A DNA stretch of 64,000 nucleotides from a virus (Duplodnaviria; Caudoviricetes). The stretch is from positions 32,001 to 96,000 of IMG/VR virus record IMGVR_UViG_2599185359_000001; one strand, written 5' to 3'. The notes under the pieces are model-generated. The model did not search any database, was not told the DNA's origin, and was given only the letters and a program-made list of their open reading frames with translations. This document shows, piece by piece, positions 26,266 through 37,814 of this stretch; the first letter of the stretch is position 1; every line of letters starts with the position of its first letter. The translations under genes were made by a program, and so were the position numbers.

Positions 26266-29200
26266 TCAACAAGAATTGTCGACCAGAGCGCGCACTTCGG
26301 AGAAAACTTTCGTCAGCGCTTCCCGCTTGCTCGCATCGTGATAGATCTGCGTTGGCTTGAACCCAACGATAACCGTGGCATCGAGCTCGGCCGAGTAGGT
26401 CTTGCGGCCGACATGATCGGCAAGGCCCTTCAGGTCGGGGTAGAATGTCTTGATTGCCTGCGGCCCGAGGAGCACGATGACTGGCGGCTTCATCGCCGCG
26501 ATTTCGCGGTAGAGGTAGGGCAGGGAGTCCGCCACTTCCTTGGCCGGCAGATCCCGCTCGCCCTTCTTCAGCGGCCGGCGAAGCACCCAGGTCCACACGG
26601 CGTCGTCAAGCCGCATACCGGCATCGTGGAGGCTCGGCGCCACATAGTTCACATAGGAGAACTGGTGCTTGAGCTCCTCGTAGTCGTTGAACGGCGCGTC
26701 CAGGATGACCATGAATTTCGGCGCGCGGCCGAGCTCGCATGGCACCGCAGCCTCGCCCAGGTTCGCCATCATATCTTCGACCACCTGCACCACCGTGTCG
26801 GCGACGAGATCGTCGACCGGGATGTCGCGGGTCGCGACGACGCCCTGGTCGCTAATTGCCGGCATCAGCTCGATCTGGTCACGCTGACGGGACGGGTCAG
26901 TCGACTTGGCTTGACCGGGCACGATGCGCGCGAACGCGCCGACGCGATCGAGATGGTCGATGGCCTTGCTGTTCACCGCGCGGCTCGGCACGCGAGCCTT
27001 GAAGTCCTCCATGCTCACAAACCGGCCAGGGCCGAAGGTCTCGGTTGTGGTCACCTTGTTCTTGCGGCGCCCGGTGCTGCTCTCGACGACGACGGGGTTC
27101 GGGTCCGAGCGCGCGGCCATGATTGCACTGGCGCCCTTCTCGGACACGTTCTTCACCGCGGACAGGGGCGCGATGATGATGCAGTCGTTCAGCGGCTCGA
27201 ACTGGCCCGTGGAAATGTTGACGTCGGGCGGGATGACCCGGATTTCGTCCTTGGCCGCCTGCTTCACGATGCTGGCGAGCTTGTCACTGTCCGCGATGCC
27301 CATGCTGGCGGTATAGAACTCGACCAGGTAGTGAGCCTTCAGGTAGGCGGCCTGATACGCGATCAGCGTGTATTCCACGGCGTGGCTGCGATTGAACGCG
27401 TAGCCGGCGAAACCTTCGATGTCCGTGAAAAGGCGATCGGCGTCCGTGTCCGGCATGCCCGAGGTGTCGACGGCGCCCTGCACGAACTTGTCGCGCTGCT
27501 GGGCCATCATCACCGGGTCCTTTTTGCCCATCGCCTTGCGGAGCACGTCGGCTTCGCCAGGCGTGAAGCCGCAGAGGACACGGGCGATCTGCATCACCTG
27601 CTCCTGGTAGGCGATCACACCATAGGTGTCCTCGAGGATGGGCTTGAGGCTCGGCCACGGGTAGCTCACGGCCTCGGTCCCGGCGCGGCGCCGGATGTAT
27701 GCCTCGGTGATGCCCGCATCGAGCGGGCCGGGACGGTTCAGGGCGTTAAGCGCGACGAGATCCTCGAAGCTGAGCGAAGCAGTTTTCGCCATCTCCTTCA
27801 GCAGGCGCCGCACGGACCCGCCCTCGAACTGGAACACGCCGGCGGTCTTCGCGCCCGAGAAAATCGCGAGCGTTGCCTCGTCGTCCAGCGGCAGCTTGTT
27901 GATGTCGACGCGGACGTTCCGGCGCTGGAAGATGAGCTTGAGCGCCTGGTCGAACATGTCGAGCGTGGACAGGCCGAGCACGTCGAGCTTGATGAGCCCC
28001 TGCTCTTCGCTGACGCGCTTGTCCCAGTTGATCACGCGCGCGTCGCCGCGCTTCTCTACCACCGCGCGCTTGGTGAGCGGCTCGCCCGCGACAACGACGC
28101 CGCCGGCGTGCGTGCCATAGGCTCGCATCTTGCCCTCGAGCTTCAGCGCCCGATCCCAGATGTGCGGGAACTGCTCCGCAAACACCTGGATCTCATGCGT
28201 GGTTTCGAACGCGTCCTTCAGCCCGGCCGAAACGCCGTGGGTGTCGCCGATGAACTTCGTGGCGCCCAGCTGGTCCTGCGGGAGGCCATAGATGCGCGCG
28301 ACGTCACGGATCGCACCGCGGGCGCCCATGGTGTTGTAGTTCACGATGCCCGCGACGTTCTCCGCACCATACCGGTCTGCCAGGTAGGCGATCACCTCTT
28401 CGCGGCGCGTGGACATGAAGTCGAGGTCGGCGTCGGGGAGATCGAGACGATCGGGGTTGATGAAGCGCTCGAACAGCAGCTTGAACCGGATCGGGTCCAC
28501 GTCGGTGATGCCGACGAGATAGGCGACCAGGCTGCCGCCCACGGAGCCGCGGCCCGGGCCGACATAAATGCCCTTGCTCTTCGACCAGCGAACGAGATCG
28601 GACACCAGCAGGAAGTACGGCGCAAAGCCGAGGCGCCGAAGCGTGTCGAGCTCGAACTGGAGGCGCGGCAGGTATTCCGCCTTGAGCTCCGCCGGGCTCG
28701 GCTGGTGCGCGAAGATGGGCGCGGTGAAGCGATCGCTCCAGCCTTCCTTGCATAGGCGCTTGAGCTCTTCGTCAGGATCGTTGGCGAGTGACGGCAGCGA
28801 TGGGTCGAGCTTCGCCCATTTGTACTCGGCCAGCTCCACCAGACGCTCGGTGTTCATCAGCCCGCGCTTGAACTCGGCGCCCCAGTTGCGGCCATAGCGG
28901 TCGGCGACCGCGTTGCTGGCGCGCACTGTGGCGGCGGCCAGCTCCTTTACCGTGTGCGGCTGGTACCGCGGGACCGGCTGGAGGTAGTCGCTGTAGGGGC
29001 GACGATCGGCGATGCCCGCGTTGCAGCTATAAGCGTCGTCGTCGTGATCGAGCCAGAACGCCGGCTGCACCACCAGCGGCTCCCACTCGGGCATGGCGCT
29101 GAAACAGCCGTTCAACTTCGCCCAGTCGATCACGCGGTGGTTCTGTCGCGAGAAGTAGGGCGTGTCGCTCGGCACAAGCTCGTAGAAGCGCGCTACGAAG

Positions 29201-29685
29201 CGAACGCGCTGCGCGAGGTCAGACATCGCTTTGAGCATGTCGTCGCGCTGTGCGACGCTCTCAAGGTCACCGGTGCTTATGACGAGACAGTCATCGTCTA
29301 GCGTCGACGCGAGATCGTCCCAGGTGACCCGCGGGACGAAGTAGAAGCGGTCAGCGTCGAACCCGCGGGTAAGCAGGCGGTAGAGCGACCGCATGCCCTC
29401 GTCGTTGGTGGGGTAGAGCTTGAGGAAGCATGCTGTCTCGCGCTCGCTTTTGTCGCGGCCAGCGTCCTCCTCCATGATCACGCGGACGCGCACGCCGGCG
29501 AGGAGCCGCTTGTCGAGCTTGCCCAGCTTCTTCGTCGCCTCCACCACGGAGGAGATCGTCATAGTGTCGCAGATGCCAACGACGTCAGCGCCCGCCTTCT
29601 CGGCCACGGCCGGCAGATCGTCGATGCCCAGGATGGACTCGCCAAGGGAGAAGTCGGTGCGCACACCGAGCAGGGGGTGGATCAT
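26266..29685 (-). CDS. dnaE: DNA polymerase III alpha subunit with C-terminal UDG-like domain
   Basis: PHP N-terminus RTDFSLGES, GPGRGSVGGSLVAY, PDADLDF, KLDVLGL and YAFNRSHA. Confidence 0.95.
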   Translation of the reverse strand: MIHPLLGVRTDFSLGESILGIDDLPAVAEKAGADVVGICDTMTISSVVEATKKLGKLDKRLLAGVRVRVIMEEDAGRDKSERETACFLKLYPTNDEGMRSLYRLLTRGFDADRFYFVPRVTWDDLASTLDDDCLVISTGDLESVAQRDDMLKAMSDLAQRVRFVARFYELVPSDTPYFSRQNHRVIDWAKLNGCFSAMPEWEPLVVQPAFWLDHDDDAYSCNAGIADRRPYSDYLQPVPRYQPHTVKELAAATVRASNAVADRYGRNWGAEFKRGLMNTERLVELAEYKWAKLDPSLPSLANDPDEELKRLCKEGWSDRFTAPIFAHQPSPAELKAEYLPRLQFELDTLRRLGFAPYFLLVSDLVRWSKSKGIYVGPGRGSVGGSLVAYLVGITDVDPIRFKLLFERFINPDRLDLPDADLDFMSTRREEVIAYLADRYGAENVAGIVNYNTMGARGAIRDVARIYGLPQDQLGATKFIGDTHGVSAGLKDAFETTHEIQVFAEQFPHIWDRALKLEGKMRAYGTHAGGVVVAGEPLTKRAVVEKRGDARVINWDKRVSEEQGLIKLDVLGLSTLDMFDQALKLIFQRRNVRVDINKLPLDDEATLAIFSGAKTAGVFQFEGGSVRRLLKEMAKTASLSFEDLVALNALNRPGPLDAGITEAYIRRRAGTEAVSYPWPSLKPILEDTYGVIAYQEQVMQIARVLCGFTPGEADVLRKAMGKKDPVMMAQQRDKFVQGAVDTSGMPDTDADRLFTDIEGFAGYAFNRSHAVEYTLIAYQAAYLKAHYLVEFYTASMGIADSDKLASIVKQAAKDEIRVIPPDVNISTGQFEPLNDCIIIAPLSAVKNVSEKGASAIMAARSDPNPVVVESSTGRRKNKVTTTETFGPGRFVSMEDFKARVPSRAVNSKAIDHLDRVGAFARIVPGQAKSTDPSRQRDQIELMPAISDQGVVATRDIPVDDLVADTVVQVVEDMMANLGEAAVPCELGRAPKFMVILDAPFNDYEELKHQFSYVNYVAPSLHDAGMRLDDAVWTWVLRRPLKKGERDLPAKEVADSLPYLYREIAAMKPPVIVLLGPQAIKTFYPDLKGLADHVGRKTYSAELDATVIVGFKPTQIYHDASKREALTKVFSEVRALVDNSC

Positions 29686-30239
29686 TTCAGCTCCAAGGTT
29701 GCACCGTTGCGCTGCACGCGCTTGCACACGGTGAGAATAGAAACGGTCGCGTAGGTGCTGCGCTGCGCGTTCTGAGCGCTGAGCGAGAAGCTTTGCGCGA
29801 TGCACGCGGTCAATTCGCGCATCGTGTGCGGTCGCTCTCGCAGCGCGCTGATGACGGCCGCCATGATGCGGTTCACGCCGGCCACGACTTCGATATGCGC
29901 GTGCCGCGGGTCGATGCGATTACGAACCATTTTGTCGATTGTGGAATGCGCTCGCAGATCCAGGTGCGTCTTGAGCGCCATCACGCCTTCTTCGTCCGGC
30001 ATCGGGGCGGGCGGGGTTGGCTCGGGCTTCTTGCGAGCAGCTGCCTTCTCGGCGCGCGTCTTCCAAGCCTCACTCATTTTCTTACCCGTGCCGTCGCTGA
30101 AGCGATCAAGCAGGCGCATCATCTGCGGCCGACGCTTGTCTACCATAGTGGCACAGTCGGCGTGCGCCGCGCACGCGGTGCAGTTCGGCGAGCCCGCGTC
30201 GAACGCGAGCGAGGAGCCGAAGCAACCAGGGGCGGGCAT
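29682..30239 (-). CDS. hypothetical protein with N-terminal Cys cluster and putative winged helix
   Basis: GCFG........C..C.....C motif. Confidence 0.7.
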   Translation of the reverse strand: MPAPGCFGSSLAFDAGSPNCTACAAHADCATMVDKRRPQMMRLLDRFSDGTGKKMSEAWKTRAEKAAARKKPEPTPPAPMPDEEGVMALKTHLDLRAHSTIDKMVRNRIDPRHAHIEVVAGVNRIMAAVISALRERPHTMRELTACIAQSFSLSAQNAQRSTYATVSILTVCKRVQRNGATLELK

Positions 30240-30266
30240 GTGTGTCACCTTGCACGGATCCAGATC

Positions 30267-30294
30267 AAAAAGGTGGGCGACATTCCTGTCGCCC
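30267..30294 (-). terminator. terminator after the AAA+ gene
   Basis: GGGCGACA/TGTCGCCC hairpin with a T5 tract on the minus strand. Confidence 0.55.
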
Positions 30295-30335
30295 GAGGTG
30301 AGGAGCCGAAGGTGAGCGCCTTCGACGGGAGTTGC

Positions 30336-31577
30336 TTATCCGAAGATGCGTTGCGCGGTCTGACGCACGGCCTCGGCCTGCGTGGAGTCCAGGCGATTTG
30401 CGTAGGCGAGCTCGATGCCCTTGCGGAACGCGCCGCCCTTGATCATGCCGATCATGGTCGCGCGGATCGATTCACGCGGTGAGATCGGGAGCGACAGTTC
30501 GCCATTGCCGTACATCTGGCGGATGCGGCTGGCGAAATCGACCATCTTCTCCGCGACGTCCTGGCTGACGCCGACGCGCTGCTTCAGGATTTCGATTTCC
30601 GTCTTCGTCTCGGGATAGTGGACCTGGATGGTCACGCCAAAGCGTGAGTAGGCGGCGGCGTTGCCGATCTTGGTGCCGCTGTAGAGACCGGTATCGTCGC
30701 CCGAGCCGTTGGTGTTGCCCGTCGCGATGAAGCGGAAATTCGGGTGCGGCTTGACCAGACGCTGATGGGGAGGGGCCTCCTTGATGTAGAGCGGCTTGCC
30801 CTCGAGGATCGGCTGATAGACCGCGATCACGGCGGGGTGCGCGAAGTCGTATTCGTCGGCGACATATACCCAGCCGCGCATCATGGCCTCGGCGAGGGGG
30901 CCGTAATCGAACTCGGTGCCCCCGTTGCGGACGACCATCTGCCCGATGATGTGCGCCTCTTCGGTGGTGTCGGTGTGCTGGACACGGACCCAGGGACGAT
31001 GGAGGCGGGCGCAAATCTGCTCGACCAGCGACGTCTTGCCGGTGCCGTGCATCCCCCAGGCGAGCAGCGGGAAGTTGAGCTGCACGGCCATCACGGCATC
31101 CTTGAGCTCTTCGGCGCGGAAGACGTAGCTGTCGTCGATCGCCGGCACCGCCTCGGCATCGGAGACGTCCAGGTTTTGCATCACGTCGATCTGGATGGGG
31201 TCACCCTGCGACGCGCCGCGCTTGGGCGGCGAGCGAAGCTCGTCGGTCAGCGGCATGTCGAACACCTCGAACATGGGCTTCTTGACGGTCGTGCCCGGCT
31301 GGGTGAACGGGAGAACCTTGGCCGCCATCTTCTGGCTGGCCTCGTCCTGGGCGCGACGCTCAGCGGCCCGCCGGGCGGCGGCCTCTTCGAACGTTTTGCT
31401 TTTGGTCGGCGCTTCGGGGTAGTCCGCCTTGTACTTCTGCTCCGTGACGCCAGGATGGGCGTTCGCGAGATGCTTGGGGATGAAGTGCTCGGCCGATCCG
31501 CAGATCTGGCAGAGGACCTTATCGCCGGCTGCGTCGTAATAGCCTTCAGGCTGCTTGAGTGCGGTCGCGGTGCTCAT
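30336..31577 (-). CDS. CobS/MoxR-like AAA+ ATPase with N-terminal C2H2 zinc finger
   Basis: CQIC...H....H, Walker A GMHGTGKT, Walker B YVADEYD and HPNFRFIATGNT. Confidence 0.9.
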   Translation of the reverse strand: MSTATALKQPEGYYDAAGDKVLCQICGSAEHFIPKHLANAHPGVTEQKYKADYPEAPTKSKTFEEAAARRAAERRAQDEASQKMAAKVLPFTQPGTTVKKPMFEVFDMPLTDELRSPPKRGASQGDPIQIDVMQNLDVSDAEAVPAIDDSYVFRAEELKDAVMAVQLNFPLLAWGMHGTGKTSLVEQICARLHRPWVRVQHTDTTEEAHIIGQMVVRNGGTEFDYGPLAEAMMRGWVYVADEYDFAHPAVIAVYQPILEGKPLYIKEAPPHQRLVKPHPNFRFIATGNTNGSGDDTGLYSGTKIGNAAAYSRFGVTIQVHYPETKTEIEILKQRVGVSQDVAEKMVDFASRIRQMYGNGELSLPISPRESIRATMIGMIKGGAFRKGIELAYANRLDSTQAEAVRQTAQRIFG

Positions 31578-31675
31578 TTCTCACTCCTCAGTGCGCTTTT
31601 GCGCTTTCGATGTGTGTCAGTTACCACACGCACAAACCAATTCAAGCGGGAATGTGTGTGGCAGTTCGCATTGGA

Positions 31676-33115
31676 TCAGCCGACAATGAAGCGCTTTAGC
31701 AGCGCCAGCAGCTGCCGGGGCATCTCGTTGACATCGTTGATGACGATGGCGTTGCTGTAATAGGCGGTGGGGCCTGCATGCTGAATGCCCACGCCTACCA
31801 GGTCGATGCCCGAGGCCTCGATCGCCTTCACCACCTGGCGGGACTGCCGGGCATAGGCGCCATAGTCTTCCGCGCTGCGGGCTTCAAAGACCAGGCTGCC
31901 CGGCTCGCCGTCGGTCATGCAGATGAGGATCTTGCGGCGCTCCTTACGCTGCAGAAGGCGACGGGCTGCGAACTCAAGGCCACAACCTTCCGGCGTGTAA
32001 CCCATGTTGTACCCGCATGCGCCGGTTTGGCCGCGTGAGTTGTGAACATGCCCGAAACGCCGCATCACCGGGATCGTCCAACGCTCCTCGAACGCCTTGA
32101 ACTTCGGCATCACGATCGGGAACATGCGGTGAATCTTCGCAACCTCGTCCGCGGCGCGCACCTCCTGCAGGTAGCCATGTTCGCGGACGCGCGGATCCTC
32201 CGTTTTGTCGGTAAAGCCCAGGCACTCGAACGCGATGCCGAGTTTCGCGAGGACCGAACCAAGCGCGTATGAGGCCTCCGTGGCAAGCACGGTGCGGGCG
32301 CCGTTCATTGACCCGGAGCAGTCGATCAACAGCGACAAGGCGGTGTCGAGGCTCTCCGCCTCCTGCCGGCGCGTGAATACACGGTCGTCATTCGCCATGA
32401 TGCGGTGCAGGTTCGGCCCATGCAGCCGGCCGGAACGCATGCCCGGCACGCGCTTGACCTGGCTACGGGCGGCGATCAGCCGGCGGAGATCCTTCTGCAG
32501 CGGCCCCGTCGCCGATGCGACCTTCTGATCGATACCTTCGAGGCTCACCTGATCGGGAATGGCGATGTCGACCATGGCGTCAAAGTCTCGCGTGAAGACG
32601 CGGAACTCTTCGCCAGCGGCATCCTCGATCTGCTTGCGGATGAACTCCTGCATCAAGGCGTCCATGTCCTTGATCTGAGAGGCGTCAACCTCGATGATCT
32701 TGTCGTCTTCCTCCTCGCGCTCGCTTTCAAAGTCGCCGCCGTGGTTCGTGTTGCTGACGTCCGGCCTGCGCGAGCCTGCGTCGACCGGGATGCTGCCGAA
32801 CGGGAAATCCTCGAGGTCTTCGTCCTGCTCGTCCTCGGCGTCTTCCTCGTCGGTGTCGCTGGGGCGGCGGCGCGGGCCGTCCTCGTCGTTATCGAGGTCG
32901 GTGTCGAAGTCGATTTCGGCGCCATCGTCCTGGTAGTCCCAGTTCTCGAGCATGCTCTCGAGCCACTTGGCGTCTTCAACATAGCTGCGGAACTCAGGAT
33001 CGCCGGCGACGTAGCGGTTCATCGCCGCGACGTGTTCGGGCGGCCAGAAGGTTTCGTCGGGACCACACTCGTCGATGAGGTCCATCGCTTCGTTGACGGA
33101 GAGCTTCATAATCAA
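31676..33115 (-). CDS. CobT C-terminal-like VWA protein with N-terminal anti-sigma-like domain
   Basis: MIDAS DCSGS and MTDGEP; N-terminal LIDECGPD..FWP motif; acidic linker. Confidence 0.85.
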   Translation of the reverse strand: MIMKLSVNEAMDLIDECGPDETFWPPEHVAAMNRYVAGDPEFRSYVEDAKWLESMLENWDYQDDGAEIDFDTDLDNDEDGPRRRPSDTDEEDAEDEQDEDLEDFPFGSIPVDAGSRRPDVSNTNHGGDFESEREEEDDKIIEVDASQIKDMDALMQEFIRKQIEDAAGEEFRVFTRDFDAMVDIAIPDQVSLEGIDQKVASATGPLQKDLRRLIAARSQVKRVPGMRSGRLHGPNLHRIMANDDRVFTRRQEAESLDTALSLLIDCSGSMNGARTVLATEASYALGSVLAKLGIAFECLGFTDKTEDPRVREHGYLQEVRAADEVAKIHRMFPIVMPKFKAFEERWTIPVMRRFGHVHNSRGQTGACGYNMGYTPEGCGLEFAARRLLQRKERRKILICMTDGEPGSLVFEARSAEDYGAYARQSRQVVKAIEASGIDLVGVGIQHAGPTAYYSNAIVINDVNEMPRQLLALLKRFIVG

Positions 33116-34404
33116 TTCCGCGATCCCTTCATCAGCTGCCCCAGGCGGCGGCGTGCATTGCGCAGCATGCCCGAAACTTCACTTTCCGACTTGCTCATCT
33201 CCTTCGAGATTTCACTCACCGACATCTTGCGTTGCTTATACAGAAATAGAGCTTTGCGTTCAGTGGGATCTAGTTGCTTCAGCGCGTCCGTGATCGAGAG
33301 ACCGCTTTTCCCGCTGCCCGGGCGATCGCCTTCATCTTGGTCATCGGCGTCCCCATCATCTGCTTCTCCGGCGCTAACTTCCGAGTCGTCATCGGCGGCA
33401 TCGCGGTCGTCTTCCCCGCTTTCGCCCTCGCCATGGTCGTCCGACGAACCGTCGCCTTCATCGTCCCCGCCGGTGCCCGCGCAGCTATCGGCGTCATCGC
33501 CATCTTCACCGTCGCTCTGACCTTCGCCGTCTCCGTGACCCTCTGCGTCGCCTTCGTCCTCGGCGCTTTCGTTCTGCCCCTGGTCGTCGGAGGCATCTTC
33601 TGCATCCGGGGTGTCGTCGGCGTCTTCATCCGAGGTGTCGTCCGAGGTGTCGTCGGCGTCTTCGTCTGCGGGATCGGGCGACGACGGTGCCGGCGGAGGC
33701 GGCGCCTTCTCTTCGCCCTTCTCGGGCTCGGGCTCGGGCTTGGGCTCGCGCTTGGGCGGCTTCATCGCCTCCAGCATCGCCTCGACGATCTCTTCGACGT
33801 CGTCGAAGGTCTCCATCGCCTTGAGGCGCCGGGAGAGATCGGGCAGGCGGCTTAGCAGCGGCATGAAGTGCGGCCAAAGCTTGTGAGCGTCCATATGCTC
33901 CTGAAAAGCCTTCTGACCGGCCAGCGCGCGCATTGCGGCCACCATGACCCCGCCGAGCGCCTGGCCGGCATCGCCAGAGGCAAGCGCCTTCTCGATCGCG
34001 GGATGGATCATGGTCGGGATGAACTGCTCGTACATCCGCTCGAGATTCTCTTTGGTGCCCGGCAGATCGCGCGGGAGAAGCTTCTCAAGCCGGATGTCCT
34101 CCACGATATTGATGAGCGCTGCGGCCTTTGCCGTCCGGCCGGCCTTCGTCGCGCGAGCGAACGGGGTATAGAAGATGTGGCCGACCTCATGGTCGAGGTA
34201 ACCGTGGATCGCCGCGAGCAGCTCGTCCGACGCGTTGTCGTTCAACTCGGGCAGCACCAGCTTGAGCGCCTTGTTGCCCTTGGTAGCGACATAGGGCTGG
34301 TGGCCGCGGAATTGTACCGCGATGCCGTCCCGCGTGAGGAGCCGAACGGTCTTCGCCAGCGAGTCGCGATGCGACACTGCCTTCAACGCTCCCGGTGCGC
34401 TCAT
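33112..34404 (-). CDS. CobT N-terminal-like HExxH protein with C-terminal sigma70 region-4 HTH
   Basis: YLDHEVGH, NIVEDIRLE, acidic linker and C-terminal ALKQLDPTERKAL...SVSEIS..M..S...V...L..ARRRL; GGAGG RBS. Confidence 0.85.
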   Translation of the reverse strand: MSAPGALKAVSHRDSLAKTVRLLTRDGIAVQFRGHQPYVATKGNKALKLVLPELNDNASDELLAAIHGYLDHEVGHIFYTPFARATKAGRTAKAAALINIVEDIRLEKLLPRDLPGTKENLERMYEQFIPTMIHPAIEKALASGDAGQALGGVMVAAMRALAGQKAFQEHMDAHKLWPHFMPLLSRLPDLSRRLKAMETFDDVEEIVEAMLEAMKPPKREPKPEPEPEKGEEKAPPPPAPSSPDPADEDADDTSDDTSDEDADDTPDAEDASDDQGQNESAEDEGDAEGHGDGEGQSDGEDGDDADSCAGTGGDDEGDGSSDDHGEGESGEDDRDAADDDSEVSAGEADDGDADDQDEGDRPGSGKSGLSITDALKQLDPTERKALFLYKQRKMSVSEISKEMSKSESEVSGMLRNARRRLGQLMKGSRN

Positions 34405-34542: not shown

Positions 34543-35118
34543 TCAGAGCTTCGCCAGGAACTCGTCGAGCGCCTTCCGCTGTACCGGCGTAAGACCCGCC
34601 GGGTGGTGGTTGCGGATCGCCTCGACGATCGGCACTTCGCCCAGGCTCATCCAGCGACGCGACGGATTACGATCGGTCACAACGTCACGCAGCACATTCA
34701 CGACATTCTGCGGCAGGCTGTCGAGCTCGGCGCCGGCCAGCGCCTCCAGGTCGGTCGCTACGAAGCTGTCGCTACCCTTCGCCTTGGGGGCGGCCCGGGC
34801 GCCAGAGAGCATGCGCGCCCAGTCGATTTCGGGGTGCCGCTGCTCGAGCACAGCCATGATGAAATCGCCAGCGTTGAGCTTGAGAACGCGAGCAATGTCC
34901 GGGGCACGATCGATGGGAATGGGCACGCGGCCGGCGGCCATGTGCGACAGCACCACGGCCGTCTTGTAGTTCAACAGCTTTGCGACGGCGCGCTGGTTCC
35001 ACTGCTTCTCACGCTCGACCTGATTAAGGCCGTCCGCGAGCATTTTGGTAGCACGGGTGTGCTGAAAGGGGTAATCACCCTCCGCTGCGTTCAGATTGAT
35101 TGCCGTCGTTACTGCCAT
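34543..35118 (-). CDS. putative phage repressor (HTH)
   Basis: NQRAVAKLLNYK..VLSHM..GRVPIPIDRAPDIARVL HTH-like segment; preceded by a large regulatory region. Confidence 0.7.
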   Translation of the reverse strand: MAVTTAINLNAAEGDYPFQHTRATKMLADGLNQVEREKQWNQRAVAKLLNYKTAVVLSHMAAGRVPIPIDRAPDIARVLKLNAGDFIMAVLEQRHPEIDWARMLSGARAAPKAKGSDSFVATDLEALAGAELDSLPQNVVNVLRDVVTDRNPSRRWMSLGEVPIVEAIRNHHPAGLTPVQRKALDEFLAKL

Positions 35119-35199
35119 CTTATTTGCCTCCTCGTTGCTGCGTCGCTCGCTGCCTGACGCTGGTGTTAACACACACTTGGTTAGCGACACTGCACACGT

Positions 35200-35205
35200 T
35201 GTCAA
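35200..35205 (-). promoter_or_regulatory. -35 box (TTGACA) of the putative repressor promoter
   Basis: Consensus TTGACA followed by an alpha-type GCTAACCA -10 region. Confidence 0.55.
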
Positions 35206-35238
35206 CAGTGTTACTCTCGCTAACAGGGCATTTCGTCA

Positions 35239-35253
35239 GAACGAAAACAGAAC
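35239..35253. promoter_or_regulatory. alphaproteobacterial LexA (SOS) box
   Basis: GAAC-GAAAACA-GAAC, an exact GAAC-N7-GAAC match. Confidence 0.65.
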
Positions 35254-35374
35254 ATACTGGCTCAGTCACCTCCATTCGCTTGGAAAGCTTCGAAGCCACG
35301 AAATATGTGTCGACATGCACACCAACATGAACGGCATGTTAACGCCTACCATTTCGGGTATGTTTCGGACGGCA

Positions 35375-36463
35375 CTACGCGTAAGGGTTCCGCAATTTGA
35401 TCTTGATCCCCAGTGCCTTCGAATACGGCAATGCTCGATCAATAGCTTTCCTTACGATCTCACCCGCAACCTCGGCCGGATCCTTCCCCCGCGGCAAGAA
35501 GCCGATGCGGACTGCGAAGCCGTAGCGCACCAGTTTTTCAGCGGCTTTGACGGCGCCAGTCAGCGCCGCGCGCTCGCCGTCCCAAAGGATGGTGATGATC
35601 TTGAGCCCTGCCGCCTTTAGCTCCATCAGCGCCTGCAGCTGCGTCGGCATGCCAGGCTCAGCGTCCAAGGTGAGATTCTTGCCGAATGAGCCGATGGCCC
35701 CGATCCCGCGCCAGTTGCGATCGCCGTCTATTGCAGCCTGGATTGCCCAAACGTCGGGCGCGCCTTCCCCCATCACGGCGTGCGCCCAGCCCTCCACCTT
35801 CGCGCGATGGCCGTTATAGAGGTACCTTGCCGTGGAGCTCAGGCGAGCGGGGAAGAGATACTTTGGATCCGCTTTTCCCGTGACATCGCGGCCCTGGAAT
35901 GTGACCAGTTGCCCGCCGAGATCCCGGATGGGGATGATCACACGGCCGGAAAACACCTTGCGCCGGTCATTGCCGTCCTCGTCCTTATAGAAGAACGCTC
36001 CATCGTGACACATCCTTAGCTCGAACGCCGTCTGGATGGCGGCCGAGAAGCCGCGGTCGTTCAGGTAGGGAATGCCCGCGGCGCCGGCGGCCACACTCAT
36101 CGGGAGCTTGAGTGCGCCCGACAATGCGGGGGTTACCTGCTTCCGCACGCGCTGCTTGGGCCGCCAGCCGCCGCCCTTTGCGATCTCGTCAAACTTCGCG
36201 CCAATCGCCTTGTTGTCCTCTGTCGCCAGGTGAGCGGCGGCGAAAGTCCACAGGTTGAATTTCGTGTCGCAAGAGCCGTGGAAGCAGTTGCCGTAGCCCG
36301 AGTCTACTCCCAGGTAGACCTTCCAGCTGGACCCGCCGCACTTGGGGCACTCGCGAATGTTGAACTGGCGCCCGCGGCTGCCAGATGTCTGGCGATATTC
36401 GATCCCCTCATATTCAAGGAAGTCTTCCGGCGTGACGTTCTGGTAGCCGCTATCGCCGTTCAT
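35375..36463 (-). CDS. DNA primase (zinc ribbon plus TOPRIM)
   Basis: CPKC...CFHGSC, RVIIPI, FQGR, GEG..D and LWDGE motifs. Confidence 0.9.
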   Translation of the reverse strand: MNGDSGYQNVTPEDFLEYEGIEYRQTSGSRGRQFNIRECPKCGGSSWKVYLGVDSGYGNCFHGSCDTKFNLWTFAAAHLATEDNKAIGAKFDEIAKGGGWRPKQRVRKQVTPALSGALKLPMSVAAGAAGIPYLNDRGFSAAIQTAFELRMCHDGAFFYKDEDGNDRRKVFSGRVIIPIRDLGGQLVTFQGRDVTGKADPKYLFPARLSSTARYLYNGHRAKVEGWAHAVMGEGAPDVWAIQAAIDGDRNWRGIGAIGSFGKNLTLDAEPGMPTQLQALMELKAAGLKIITILWDGERAALTGAVKAAEKLVRYGFAVRIGFLPRGKDPAEVAGEIVRKAIDRALPYSKALGIKIKLRNPYA

Positions 36464-37791
36464 CAGTCGAAGCCCATGAACTCGGTGAGGAACCGCATGC
36501 ACTTCAGGTCCTGCTTGAACCGCATCCGCACACCGCTCTCGGCGTTTCGCATTTCGGAGAAGTAGAGAACCACCTCACCGTTCGCGCGCTCGTCGACCGA
36601 CTGGTTGATGGTGATCAGCACGTCGGCCGTGCGGACCACTTCGTAATCGTCGGCCGCGTCAGTGCCGTCCGAGACGTTTCGCTGCGCCTTCTGAGTGCCG
36701 GTGCGGTTGGTCTGGTAGCCGGTGATGACCGCGGCGTTGAAGGTGGTCCCCATCGCGCGCAAGTCCTGACCGACTTCGGCCAAGCCGAACCGCTTGTCCT
36801 GGTACTGCTGCTCCGGCCTCATGATGCCCAGGTAGTCGACGACGATCAGGTCATAGTCCTGGCCGTTCGCCTGCTTCTTCTTCAGGATGCGGACGAGCTC
36901 AGAGACCTTGAGCGTGCGGATCGGGAACGCCTGGACGTCGAAGACGCCGAGGCCGGGCTTCTTCTCCCATGCCTCGAGCGCGGCATCGACTTCGGCCTGG
37001 CGCTGGACCAGCTCCTTGAAGGCCACACCAGAGACGTTCGCGTCGCTGCGATCCTCGATGATGTCCTCAGAGACTTCGCAGCTGGCATAGAAGACGCGGA
37101 AGCCCGCCTCGGCCGCCTTGAGCGCGAAGGTGATCATCGAGGCGGTCTTGCCCGACTTCGGCGGCCCCATGAGGATATTCAGCTCCTTGCGACCCCAGCC
37201 GCGGTGCGGCGTCAGCTGGTTGTCGAGCTCGGGGAAGCCGGTGGTGATGCCGCCGTTCGTGTAGCCGCCTGCTGCTGCCTGCGCGCGCCGCTGCTGACGG
37301 TTCGCGCGCCCCGACGTGAAGGTGCGCGCCACCTGCGCGTCCGTCGCGCCGACCTGCTTCGCCTCCTCAATTGCGGCGAGCCCCTTGAAGATCTTGGTCT
37401 GATCTTGGCTATCCAGCGCGTCAGCGAGGCCCATTGTGGCGTTCTCGAGCGCGGCGTGGCGGGCGAAATCGGCGATGGTGTCGATCACGAACTGTCGGTC
37501 GGCCAGCGGATCGCGGTGCAGCACGCCGAGAAGCCGCTTCACCTCATCGAAGTCGGCGATCTTCACCTTCTTCGCAGCGACGAGGCGCTTCATCACCTGC
37601 ACATAGGTCTGCAGGGTGGGGCAGTGGCCGTATTTCTCCAGGTAGATCTTCTGGATCGCGACGATCGCGGCGAGGGACTCGTTCTCGAAATACTCGGGCA
37701 GCACCAGGCCGCCGACCGATTGCACGAACACGTTGTCGCGCAGATAGTGGGCAGCAAGCTGCTCCTGAAAGGCTTGATCGAACTGAGACAT
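36463..37791 (-). CDS. dnaB: DnaB-like replicative helicase
   Basis: ITTGF.ELD, GPPKSGKT, IVVDYL and QTNR motifs. Confidence 0.9.
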   Translation of the reverse strand: MSQFDQAFQEQLAAHYLRDNVFVQSVGGLVLPEYFENESLAAIVAIQKIYLEKYGHCPTLQTYVQVMKRLVAAKKVKIADFDEVKRLLGVLHRDPLADRQFVIDTIADFARHAALENATMGLADALDSQDQTKIFKGLAAIEEAKQVGATDAQVARTFTSGRANRQQRRAQAAAGGYTNGGITTGFPELDNQLTPHRGWGRKELNILMGPPKSGKTASMITFALKAAEAGFRVFYASCEVSEDIIEDRSDANVSGVAFKELVQRQAEVDAALEAWEKKPGLGVFDVQAFPIRTLKVSELVRILKKKQANGQDYDLIVVDYLGIMRPEQQYQDKRFGLAEVGQDLRAMGTTFNAAVITGYQTNRTGTQKAQRNVSDGTDAADDYEVVRTADVLITINQSVDERANGEVVLYFSEMRNAESGVRMRFKQDLKCMRFLTEFMGFD

Positions 37792-37814
37792 GAACCCTCT
37801 GGTGTGTGTCACTT

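Follow-up and report, generated by a model that had tools for sequence, protein, structure and literature searches.

A prophage CobT-like AAA+ adaptor divided between two genes, with a candidate sigma region 4/anti-sigma pair at the break

Introduction

Why would a phage adaptor protein be carried on two genes, with parts that resemble a sigma factor and an anti-sigma factor at the point where it breaks? This question is raised by a locus in a 64,000-nucleotide stretch of viral DNA (Caudoviricetes; positions 32,001 to 96,000 of IMG/VR record IMGVR_UViG_2599185359_000001), which we refer to as the window and whose numbering is used throughout. Here, a CobT-like protein, the presumed adaptor of a neighboring CobS/MoxR-type AAA+ ATPase, is divided into an upstream gene for its HExxH-bearing N-terminal part (the N-half) and a downstream gene for its von Willebrand factor A (VWA) part (the VWA-half). 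An earlier note on this DNA had proposed that the junction between an extracytoplasmic function (ECF) sigma factor gene and an anti-sigma gene was captured inside the acidic linker of the adaptor. Our analysis points to a phage system of the CobS/CobT-like kind in which the adaptor comes in two pieces and appears to bear an exapted pair composed of sigma factor region 4 (sigma4) and an anti-sigma domain. Literature searches turned up no published description of a split CobT with such a pair.

Results

The CobT-like adaptor is encoded by two coupled genes

Both genes lie on the minus strand. The N-half gene (33112..34404) encodes 430 amino acids (aa) comprising an HExxH N-terminal domain, an acidic linker, and a sigma4 tail; it starts at the ATG at 34404, matching the start of its relatives, within an open reading frame (ORF) that remains open to 34527. 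The VWA-half gene (31676..33115) encodes 479 aa from a TTG start and comprises an anti-sigma-like module, a second acidic linker, a middle domain, and the VWA domain. The two meet in a TTGA stop/start overlap (33112..33115), where the N-half ends aat TGA and the TTG overlaps it, an arrangement indicative of translational coupling. AAGGGA is found 8 nucleotides (nt) upstream of the TTG. An alternative ATG (33109) lies 2 nt past the N-half stop and would give a VWA-half of 477 aa; the TTG is backed by relatives that begin MI..LS at ATGA or GTGA overlaps.

The N-half matched the Pfam family CobT (PF06213; E 5e-11, 43.1 bits against a cut-off of 26.1), and the VWA-half matched CobT_C (PF11775; E 1.3e-23, 84.2 bits against a cut-off of 21). 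The phage family phrog_1576, a model of 729 positions, was covered by the N-half at positions 10 to 416 (E 4.6e-55) and by the VWA-half at positions 338 to 728 (E 1.3e-73). Because the two proteins tile this model, the two genes together read as an ordinary phage CobT-like protein with extra sequence inserted. The ORFs and this coverage confirmed the earlier claim that a CobT-like sequence is divided between two coupled genes.

To place the split among related proteins, we used the results of a search of 5.8 billion proteins, in which the relatives come from independent metagenomic assemblies. About 60 split N-halves (335 to 470 aa) and about 55 full-length VWA-halves (430 to 510 aa) were found. 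The same sigma4 tail stands at the end of 59 of 59 N-halves, and the same module stands at the start of every full-length VWA-half. As the earlier note had suggested looking for, fused CobT-like proteins without the insert also exist: in these relatives (700 to 750 aa), the acidic linker runs straight into the middle domain, and both modules (~130 residues) are absent. Thus, the modules and the split strictly co-occur, being present together in split forms and both missing from fused ones. The junction was examined in 10 fetched loci, which included IMG/VR contigs, a Sphingomonas metagenome-assembled genome, and a Novosphingobium genome. It was tight in all 10 and was built in various ways: an ATGA or GTGA overlap, TAATG, or a stop followed by 3 nt and a start. 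Frame offsets among relatives were -1, +2, or +6, and a stop with restart in the same frame was seen in 4 of 11 loci. In these four (L002, L004, L008, and L013), the N-half stop is followed by one codon and an in-frame VWA-half start, such that stop-codon read-through would give a fused protein. A conserved programmed frameshift or read-through was rejected, since the offsets differ between relatives. Collectively, the sequences of these relatives indicate that the split is real, long-standing, and not an assembly artifact.

The modules at the break are conserved, and the linkers beside them are not

Comparison of the parts of the adaptor among relatives revealed different patterns of conservation. 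The folded N-terminal domain varies between 201 and 215 residues (mean pairwise identity, 55.5%), and the middle plus VWA domain varies between 320 and 343 residues (59.6%). The sigma4 module has a fixed length of 56 residues in 55 relatives (49%), and the anti-sigma module has 53 to 54 residues (44%). Acidic linker 1 (33310..33732, minus strand; aa ~225 to 365) and acidic linker 2 (32675..32926, minus strand), which follows the anti-sigma-like module, range from 50 to 177 residues (37%) and from 27 to 108 residues (29%), respectively. The fixed lengths and the identities of 49% and 44%, against linkers that vary up to 4-fold in length at 29 to 37% identity, support the view that both modules are kept by purifying selection. 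Linker 1 is predicted to be disordered by AlphaFold2 (AF2), with a predicted local distance difference test (pLDDT) score below 50. Amid its freely varying sequence stands a short motif, GEGHGDGEG(T/Q)(D/S)DG...C.G (33475-33543; aa 288 to 310), which might bind a metal or act as a docking peptide. Its GHGDGEG...C.G core occurs in 38 of 59 split N-halves, compared to 2 of 54 fused proteins.

A tree of the VWA domain was built from 56 split and 31 fused proteins. In it, the split ones form a single group nested among the fused ones; their label needs 3 changes, compared to about 26 when labels are shuffled. P0058 and P0060, although fused, fall within the split group (Shimodaira-Hasegawa-like approximate likelihood ratio test [SH-aLRT] support of 99), and no other fused protein has the linker motif. 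Both resemble secondary re-fusions from which the cassette was deleted, which suggests that split and fused adaptors are functionally equivalent.

The N-half ends in an ECF-type sigma region 4

We next consider the identity of the two modules. The C-terminal end of the N-half (33127..33294, minus strand; aa 371 to 426) forms four helices that AF2 modeled with a pLDDT of 96 to 98. This tail scored above the Pfam cut-offs for both Sigma70_r4_2 (PF08281; 29.4 bits against 25.7) and Sigma70_r4 (PF04545; 28.0 against 24.1), and precomputed Pfam annotation places PF04545 and/or PF08281 on about 25 of the ~60 split N-halves. With Foldseek, the model superposed on ECF sigma4 domains with a root mean square deviation (RMSD) of 0.5 to 1.2 Å over 53 to 57 residues. 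The top match was the sigma4 domain of SigL in its complex with the anti-sigma factor RslA (3hug), and the same domain (3hug_A) was the best PDB sequence match of the N-half family profile (E 7e-5). An exhaustive VIA structure search likewise gave Z scores of 9.3 to 11.2 to sigma4 domains. The last sigma4 helix carries an arginine, R418, that is invariant in all 55 aligned N-halves. At the DNA level, 33127-33294 has a GC content of 0.53, compared to 0.636 for the window. Thus, the proposals that the N-half ends in an ECF sigma70 region 4 and that this DNA is richer in AT than its surroundings both held.

The N-half is not a sigma factor, because it is without a sigma2 domain: no Sigma70_r2 (PF04542) was found in it, and none of the genome's 20 matches to that profile lies inside the window. 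Nor did the tail resemble a PhyR-type sigma mimic at the profile level, as PhyR_sigma-like scored 13.6 bits where its cut-off is 27, and there was no receiver domain.

The VWA-half begins with a module related to anti-sigma factors

The start of the VWA-half (32945..33097, minus strand) was modeled as three helices (residues 7 to 17, 26 to 38, and 40 to 57) with a pLDDT of 81, in the manner of a class I anti-sigma domain. Its consensus among relatives is LS..EAMD.ID.YGPD..WP...L..W, and two aspartates in helix 1 are invariant. The fourth, sigma2-binding helix is absent: the model shows no helix past residue 57, where the acidic linker follows. Since helix 4 is missing, the N terminus of the VWA-half is not a complete class I anti-sigma factor. 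Two other proteins, P0236 (559 aa) and P0256 (814 aa), have six matches each to the first ~25 positions of the module profile, which suggests a repeat built on a D..D.YG.D..WP-like unit.

A profile of 11 phage N-terminal modules was searched against 1.84 billion representative proteins at an E value of ≤1e-3. Besides VWA-halves, the 213 matches consisted of proteins of 140 to 180 aa that carry the module at their N terminus. These have a common layout, with the ..IDAYGAD..RWP..ER......LD..L module followed by a segment shaped like a fourth helix, one transmembrane helix, and a short tail. Alignment of the phage module with these small membrane proteins by hhalign gave a probability of 99.3% (E 4e-20, 60 columns). 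Of 200 alphaproteobacterial genomes sampled, 53 encode such a small protein, usually just one. In 20 of 20 inspected alphaproteobacterial loci, an ORF with a sigma4-like tail lies immediately upstream; in most of the 20, it overlaps the start of the small protein by a few bases (4 nt in several), and Sigma70_r2 and Sigma70_r4_2 were both present in each of the 10 upstream ORFs scanned. Because they lie directly downstream of an ECF sigma gene in every locus inspected, the small single-pass membrane proteins are probable anti-sigma factors. Matches to the NCBIfam "antisigma" family NF052375 (6 of 24) and one JGI protein name, "anti-sigma factor RsiW," are in line with this assignment. The start of the VWA-half is therefore homologous to proteins that follow alphaproteobacterial ECF genes, as the earlier note had surmised from its likeness to 'LLD.YG.D..RWP' N termini. 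As a family, the small '..IDAYGAD..RWP' membrane proteins are poorly annotated; Pfam barely recognizes them, and 4 of 24 weakly match DUF3379.

The two modules probably derive from one operon junction

If both modules came from one operon, the phage sigma4 should resemble the ECF factors beside these small anti-sigma proteins. When the phage sigma4 profile was run against 15 genomes holding the small anti-sigma, the ECF factor beside it was the genome's best match in 7 of 15 and the second best in 5 of 15. Assuming at least 10 sigma factors per genome, a binomial calculation puts the chance of ranking first in 7 of 15 at about 3e-4, a rough estimate that overstates the case because the genomes are related. 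Alignment of the phage tails with the cognate ECF sigma4 domains by hhalign gave 97.7% (E 1.6e-12), and the two share the pattern L.P..R.A......S..E.A.......E.LL..ARR.L. The gene order, running from the end of sigma4 through a coupled stop/start to the start of the anti-sigma module, is alike in the phage and the cellular operons. Because the rank test, the alignment, and the shared gene order agree, it is well supported that a sigma/anti-sigma operon junction was captured, as a single piece, inside the acidic linker of the phage CobT. The capture proposed by the earlier note is thus borne out by homology, by synteny, and by the absence of both parts from fused relatives.

The present host is a poor candidate for the source. 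In its genome the anti-sigma module occurs nowhere else, and the phage tail is matched only weakly (E 0.004 or worse) by the genome's sigma factors, of which there are about 20; a recent capture from this host was rejected for these reasons. Fourteen genomes of the host's family gave weak partial matches only, without the N-terminal module, and no cognate anti-sigma. Unlike the host's family, other families of the same order have strong matches to the anti-sigma module.

A constitutive clasp is the most economical reading of the retained parts

We propose the following scenario for the origin and role of the modules. A fragment that took in the last part of an ECF sigma gene (its 3' end, encoding only region 4) and the first part of the coupled class I anti-sigma gene (its 5' end, encoding only helices 1 to 3) would have landed in the gene of a phage CobT-like adaptor, within the stretch for the disordered acidic linker, turning one gene into two coupled genes. 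Sigma4 and the three-helix anti-sigma bundle would most likely still bind each other, and the bound pair would act as a constitutive, noncovalent clasp through which the two parts of the adaptor are again flexibly tethered. If the arrangement follows that of cellular CobT, the N-terminal domain would sit at the rim of the CobS-like AAA+ ring, with the VWA domain engaging the pore.

In the class I anti-sigma domain, helices 1 to 3 bind sigma4, in many groups through contact between an aspartate of helix 1 and an arginine of the last sigma4 helix, and ECF/anti-sigma pairs are usually mutually specific (PMC7406223). In cellular CobST, the CobT N-terminal domain docks at the periphery of the CobS oligomer, and the VWA domain, tethered only via a long flexible linker, shifts to the pore upon ATP binding (bioRxiv 10.64898/2026.10.09.757910). 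The phage retains sigma4 and helices 1 to 3; sigma2, helix 4, and the transmembrane segment have been lost. Since the retained parts are the sub-pair known to bind, and since the two CobT domains are flexibly tethered in the cellular protein, a clasp is the most economical reading. For the clasp role, the proposal draws on published sigma4/anti-sigma structures and on conservation. Altogether, we consider it moderately probable that a sigma/anti-sigma junction was captured and now serves as a clasp joining the CobT halves.

Several observations weigh against this reading. Of the two profile matches that the earlier note had predicted, the one to Sigma70_r4_2 was obtained (above), but Pfam and NCBIfam profiles do not recognize the phage N-terminal module as an anti-sigma domain. 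The first ~60 residues of the VWA-half had no PDB sequence match, and a Foldseek search of the PDB with the module model found none. In an exhaustive VIA search of 48,161 PDB representatives, the top two matches of the 68-aa module were the anti-sigma domains of RsiW (5wuq_C; Z 5.5, RMSD 2.6 Å, 61 residues) and MucA (8z6g_A; Z 5.3), with RslA, RskA, and PupR also in the top 30; a Z of 5.5 is weak in absolute terms and carries little weight alone, although these low values agree with the sequence and synteny evidence for anti-sigma identity. The invariant aspartate and arginine can be likened to RseA D11 and RpoE R178 by helix, not residue by residue. The rank test is only moderate, since in 3 of the 15 genomes, which are related to one another, the cognate ECF ranked low or went undetected. 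Lastly, both domains of cellular CobT contact CobS on their own (bioRxiv 10.64898/2026.10.09.757910), and a tether might not be strictly needed since both reach CobS alone.

A controllable version of the joint can also be envisaged, in which the AAA+ ATPase pulls it apart or a cellular sigma or anti-sigma factor competes for it, so that the peptidase-motif and VWA halves are joined conditionally; on a broader view, sigma/anti-sigma pairs would naturally supply orthogonal "snap" domains that enable selection to split proteins. We regard this as unlikely, and the opening of the joint by the AAA+ ATPase, suggested by the earlier note, was not supported.

Alternative roles for the modules

The modules could instead be a regulatory device aimed at the host, binding a host ECF factor, anti-sigma factor, or RNA polymerase and thereby coupling the phage to stress or redirecting transcription. 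Both derive from a transcription-control pair, the usual targets of sigma4 domains are the RNA polymerase flap and -35 DNA (according to the titles of the top structural matches), and the long flexible linkers leave the modules within reach of third parties. However, no cognate anti-sigma turned up in the searched genomes of the host and its family, and the host's sigma factors match the tail only weakly (above). The absence of the sigma2-binding helix 4 makes full inhibition of a sigma factor unlikely (PMC7406223), ECF/anti-sigma pairs tend to be specific for each other, and the cassette appears to have been dispensable where P0058 and P0060 re-fused without it. We therefore consider a host-directed role improbable. 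The stress switch, sigma appropriation, and competition by host ECF/anti-sigma proteins that the earlier note had put forward find no support, given the lack of cognate anti-sigma genes in the searched genomes of the host and its family and the absence of helix 4.

A second alternative is that the cassette is a relic that split the gene, that its modules no longer interact, and that the two halves assemble independently on the CobS-like ring. The separate contacts of the cellular CobT domains with CobS and the loss of the cassette in one lineage are both consistent with such a history. Yet the lengths of the modules are fixed and their identity is near that of the folded domains in a clade that has diverged to about 40 to 45% identity, and invariant residues are kept within them while the adjacent linkers vary freely, which makes a relic rather improbable, more so than a host-directed role.

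It is less probable still, and in our judgment quite doubtful, that the sigma4 tail is an ordinary DNA-binding helix-turn-helix (HTH), used for autoregulation or for holding the motor on DNA and modulated by the module at the start of the VWA-half. The tail retains a complete HTH fold, modeled with very high confidence, it has weak matches to other HTH families (e.g., ArsR and LuxR-type), and the operon lies amid replication genes. On the other hand, DNA binding alone leaves the strict co-occurrence of the tail with the anti-sigma module and the split unexplained. In the family consensus (E-D-E-V..D-L-L), the recognition helix begins with acidic residues, a weak point against DNA binding because the cognate ECF sigma4 is acidic there too. 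Repeated sites resembling operators were not seen, although no search aimed at them was made.

Finally, an assembly error or a recent frameshift pseudogene has a negligible chance of accounting for the locus and was ruled out, as about 55 to 60 independent assemblies have the same two-gene layout, their junctions differ in sequence and offset yet are always coupled, and fused relatives are without the ~130 residues that flank the break.

Other features of the adaptor and its neighborhood

In the N-half, the folded N-terminal domain (33766..34371, minus strand; aa 12 to 213) was modeled with a pLDDT above 90 to 95. It contains the HExxH motif (34177-34191, minus strand) and the EDIRLE motif (34084-34101, minus strand), and the HExxH and NIVEDIRLE region read there by the earlier note is indeed present. 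HExxH together with EDxRxE was found in 58 of 59 split N-halves and 47 of 50 fused phage-type proteins, compared to 5 of 24 cellular CobT-like proteins. A search of PDB sequences with the phage family profile found no solved CobT at an E value of ≤0.01, and structure searches with the N-half were taken up by matches to its sigma4 tail. In the VWA-half, the middle domain and the VWA domain with its MIDAS (metal ion-dependent adhesion site) occupy 31679..32674 (minus strand), with Pfam CobT_C over 31685-32380.

The CobT halves and the AAA+ gene are all on the minus strand and form one three-gene unit. The CobS/MoxR-type ATPase, the putative motor partner, is encoded at 30336..31577, after a gap of 98 nt from the VWA-half. 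Its assignment to the MoxR/CobS group is based on an AAA_5 core (E 2.8e-21, 76.4 bits) and a C-terminal lid of the CbbQ/NirQ/NorQ type (CbbQ_C, 25.2 bits), and it matches phrog_249 (E 1.5e-90). Among 29 related loci, split and fused alike, 27 have a CobS-like gene directly downstream of the VWA gene. Before the AAA+ core, aa 19 to 62 of the ATPase form an N-terminal extension with a weak ROS/MucR zinc-finger-like match (E 0.06). A terminator-like hairpin (30275..30294, minus strand), identified by consensus match only, would end the unit. Just past it lies a 188-aa ORF (29682-30248, minus strand) with a weak phrog_3616 match at its Cys-rich N terminus and a weak winged-helix match at its C terminus; it appears not to be a member of the CobST-like unit.

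The wider setting is the replication region of a prophage, with a DnaE-like polymerase gene (26266-29805), then an HTH gene, a primase-like gene, and dnaB (34543-37812). No cobalamin genes were found near the split CobT, although cobN elsewhere in the genome was not searched for.

Discussion

The modules described here are textbook parts of transcription control that occur outside any sigma factor, reduced to just the two portions known to bind each other and standing at the point where an AAA+ adaptor is split. If they bind each other, the locus would represent a natural gene split rescued by a ready-made heterodimerization pair taken from an operon junction, which would bear on how split genes survive. 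Such a case would also be relevant to synthetic biology, where ECF/anti-sigma pairs are already used as orthogonal parts. In addition, the analysis highlights an under-studied anti-sigma family that about a quarter of the sampled alphaproteobacterial genomes encode, and it draws attention to a widespread and likewise under-studied phage CobS/CobT-like motor with a conserved HExxH.

The closest known systems are the single-chain CobT-like proteins of SSU5-like phage-plasmids and of Rhizobium phages such as RHEph10 (phrog_1576 plus phrog_249), which share the HExxH N-terminal domain, the acidic linker, the VWA domain, and an adjacent AAA+ gene. The split clade is nested within proteins of this kind on the tree. 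It differs from them in that the adaptor is made from two genes, with ~130 residues (sigma4 and the three-helix module) inserted at the break.

The cellular aerobic cobaltochelatase motor CobS-CobT (cryo-EM preprints 10.64898/2026.10.09.757910 and 10.64898/2026.07.21.739949) is similar in its CobT and CobT_C domains, its MoxR-type AAA+ partner, and its arrangement of an N-terminal domain, a long flexible linker, and a VWA domain. The phage system differs in its prophage replication context, its split chain, and its conserved HExxH, which is uncommon in the cellular proteins. Both CobT profiles are matched here, but on two proteins, and there is no single polypeptide in a cobalamin context. Because of the replication context and the rarity of the HExxH/EDxRxE motif in cellular CobT, the phage pair is probably not a cobalamin enzyme.

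Alphaproteobacterial ECF/class I anti-sigma operons of the '..IDAYGAD..RWP' type share with the phage pair homologous sigma4 and three-helix modules, the gene order, and tight stop/start coupling, and pairs of this general kind have been solved (SigL sigma4-RslA, 3HUG; SigW-RsiW, 5WUQ; and AlgU-MucA, 8Z6G). In contrast to these, the phage has no sigma2, fourth anti-sigma helix, or transmembrane segment, and its modules are fused to the halves of an unrelated AAA+ adaptor. A last parallel is the sigma factor mimicry of PhyR-NepR (3T0Y), in which a sigma-like domain outside a sigma factor serves as the partner of an anti-sigma factor; a PhyR structure was among the fold matches of the sigma4 tail (Z 8.3). 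PhyR retains sigma2- and sigma4-like parts together with a receiver domain and regulates transcription, whereas the phage pair would be a structural joint with no partner switch.

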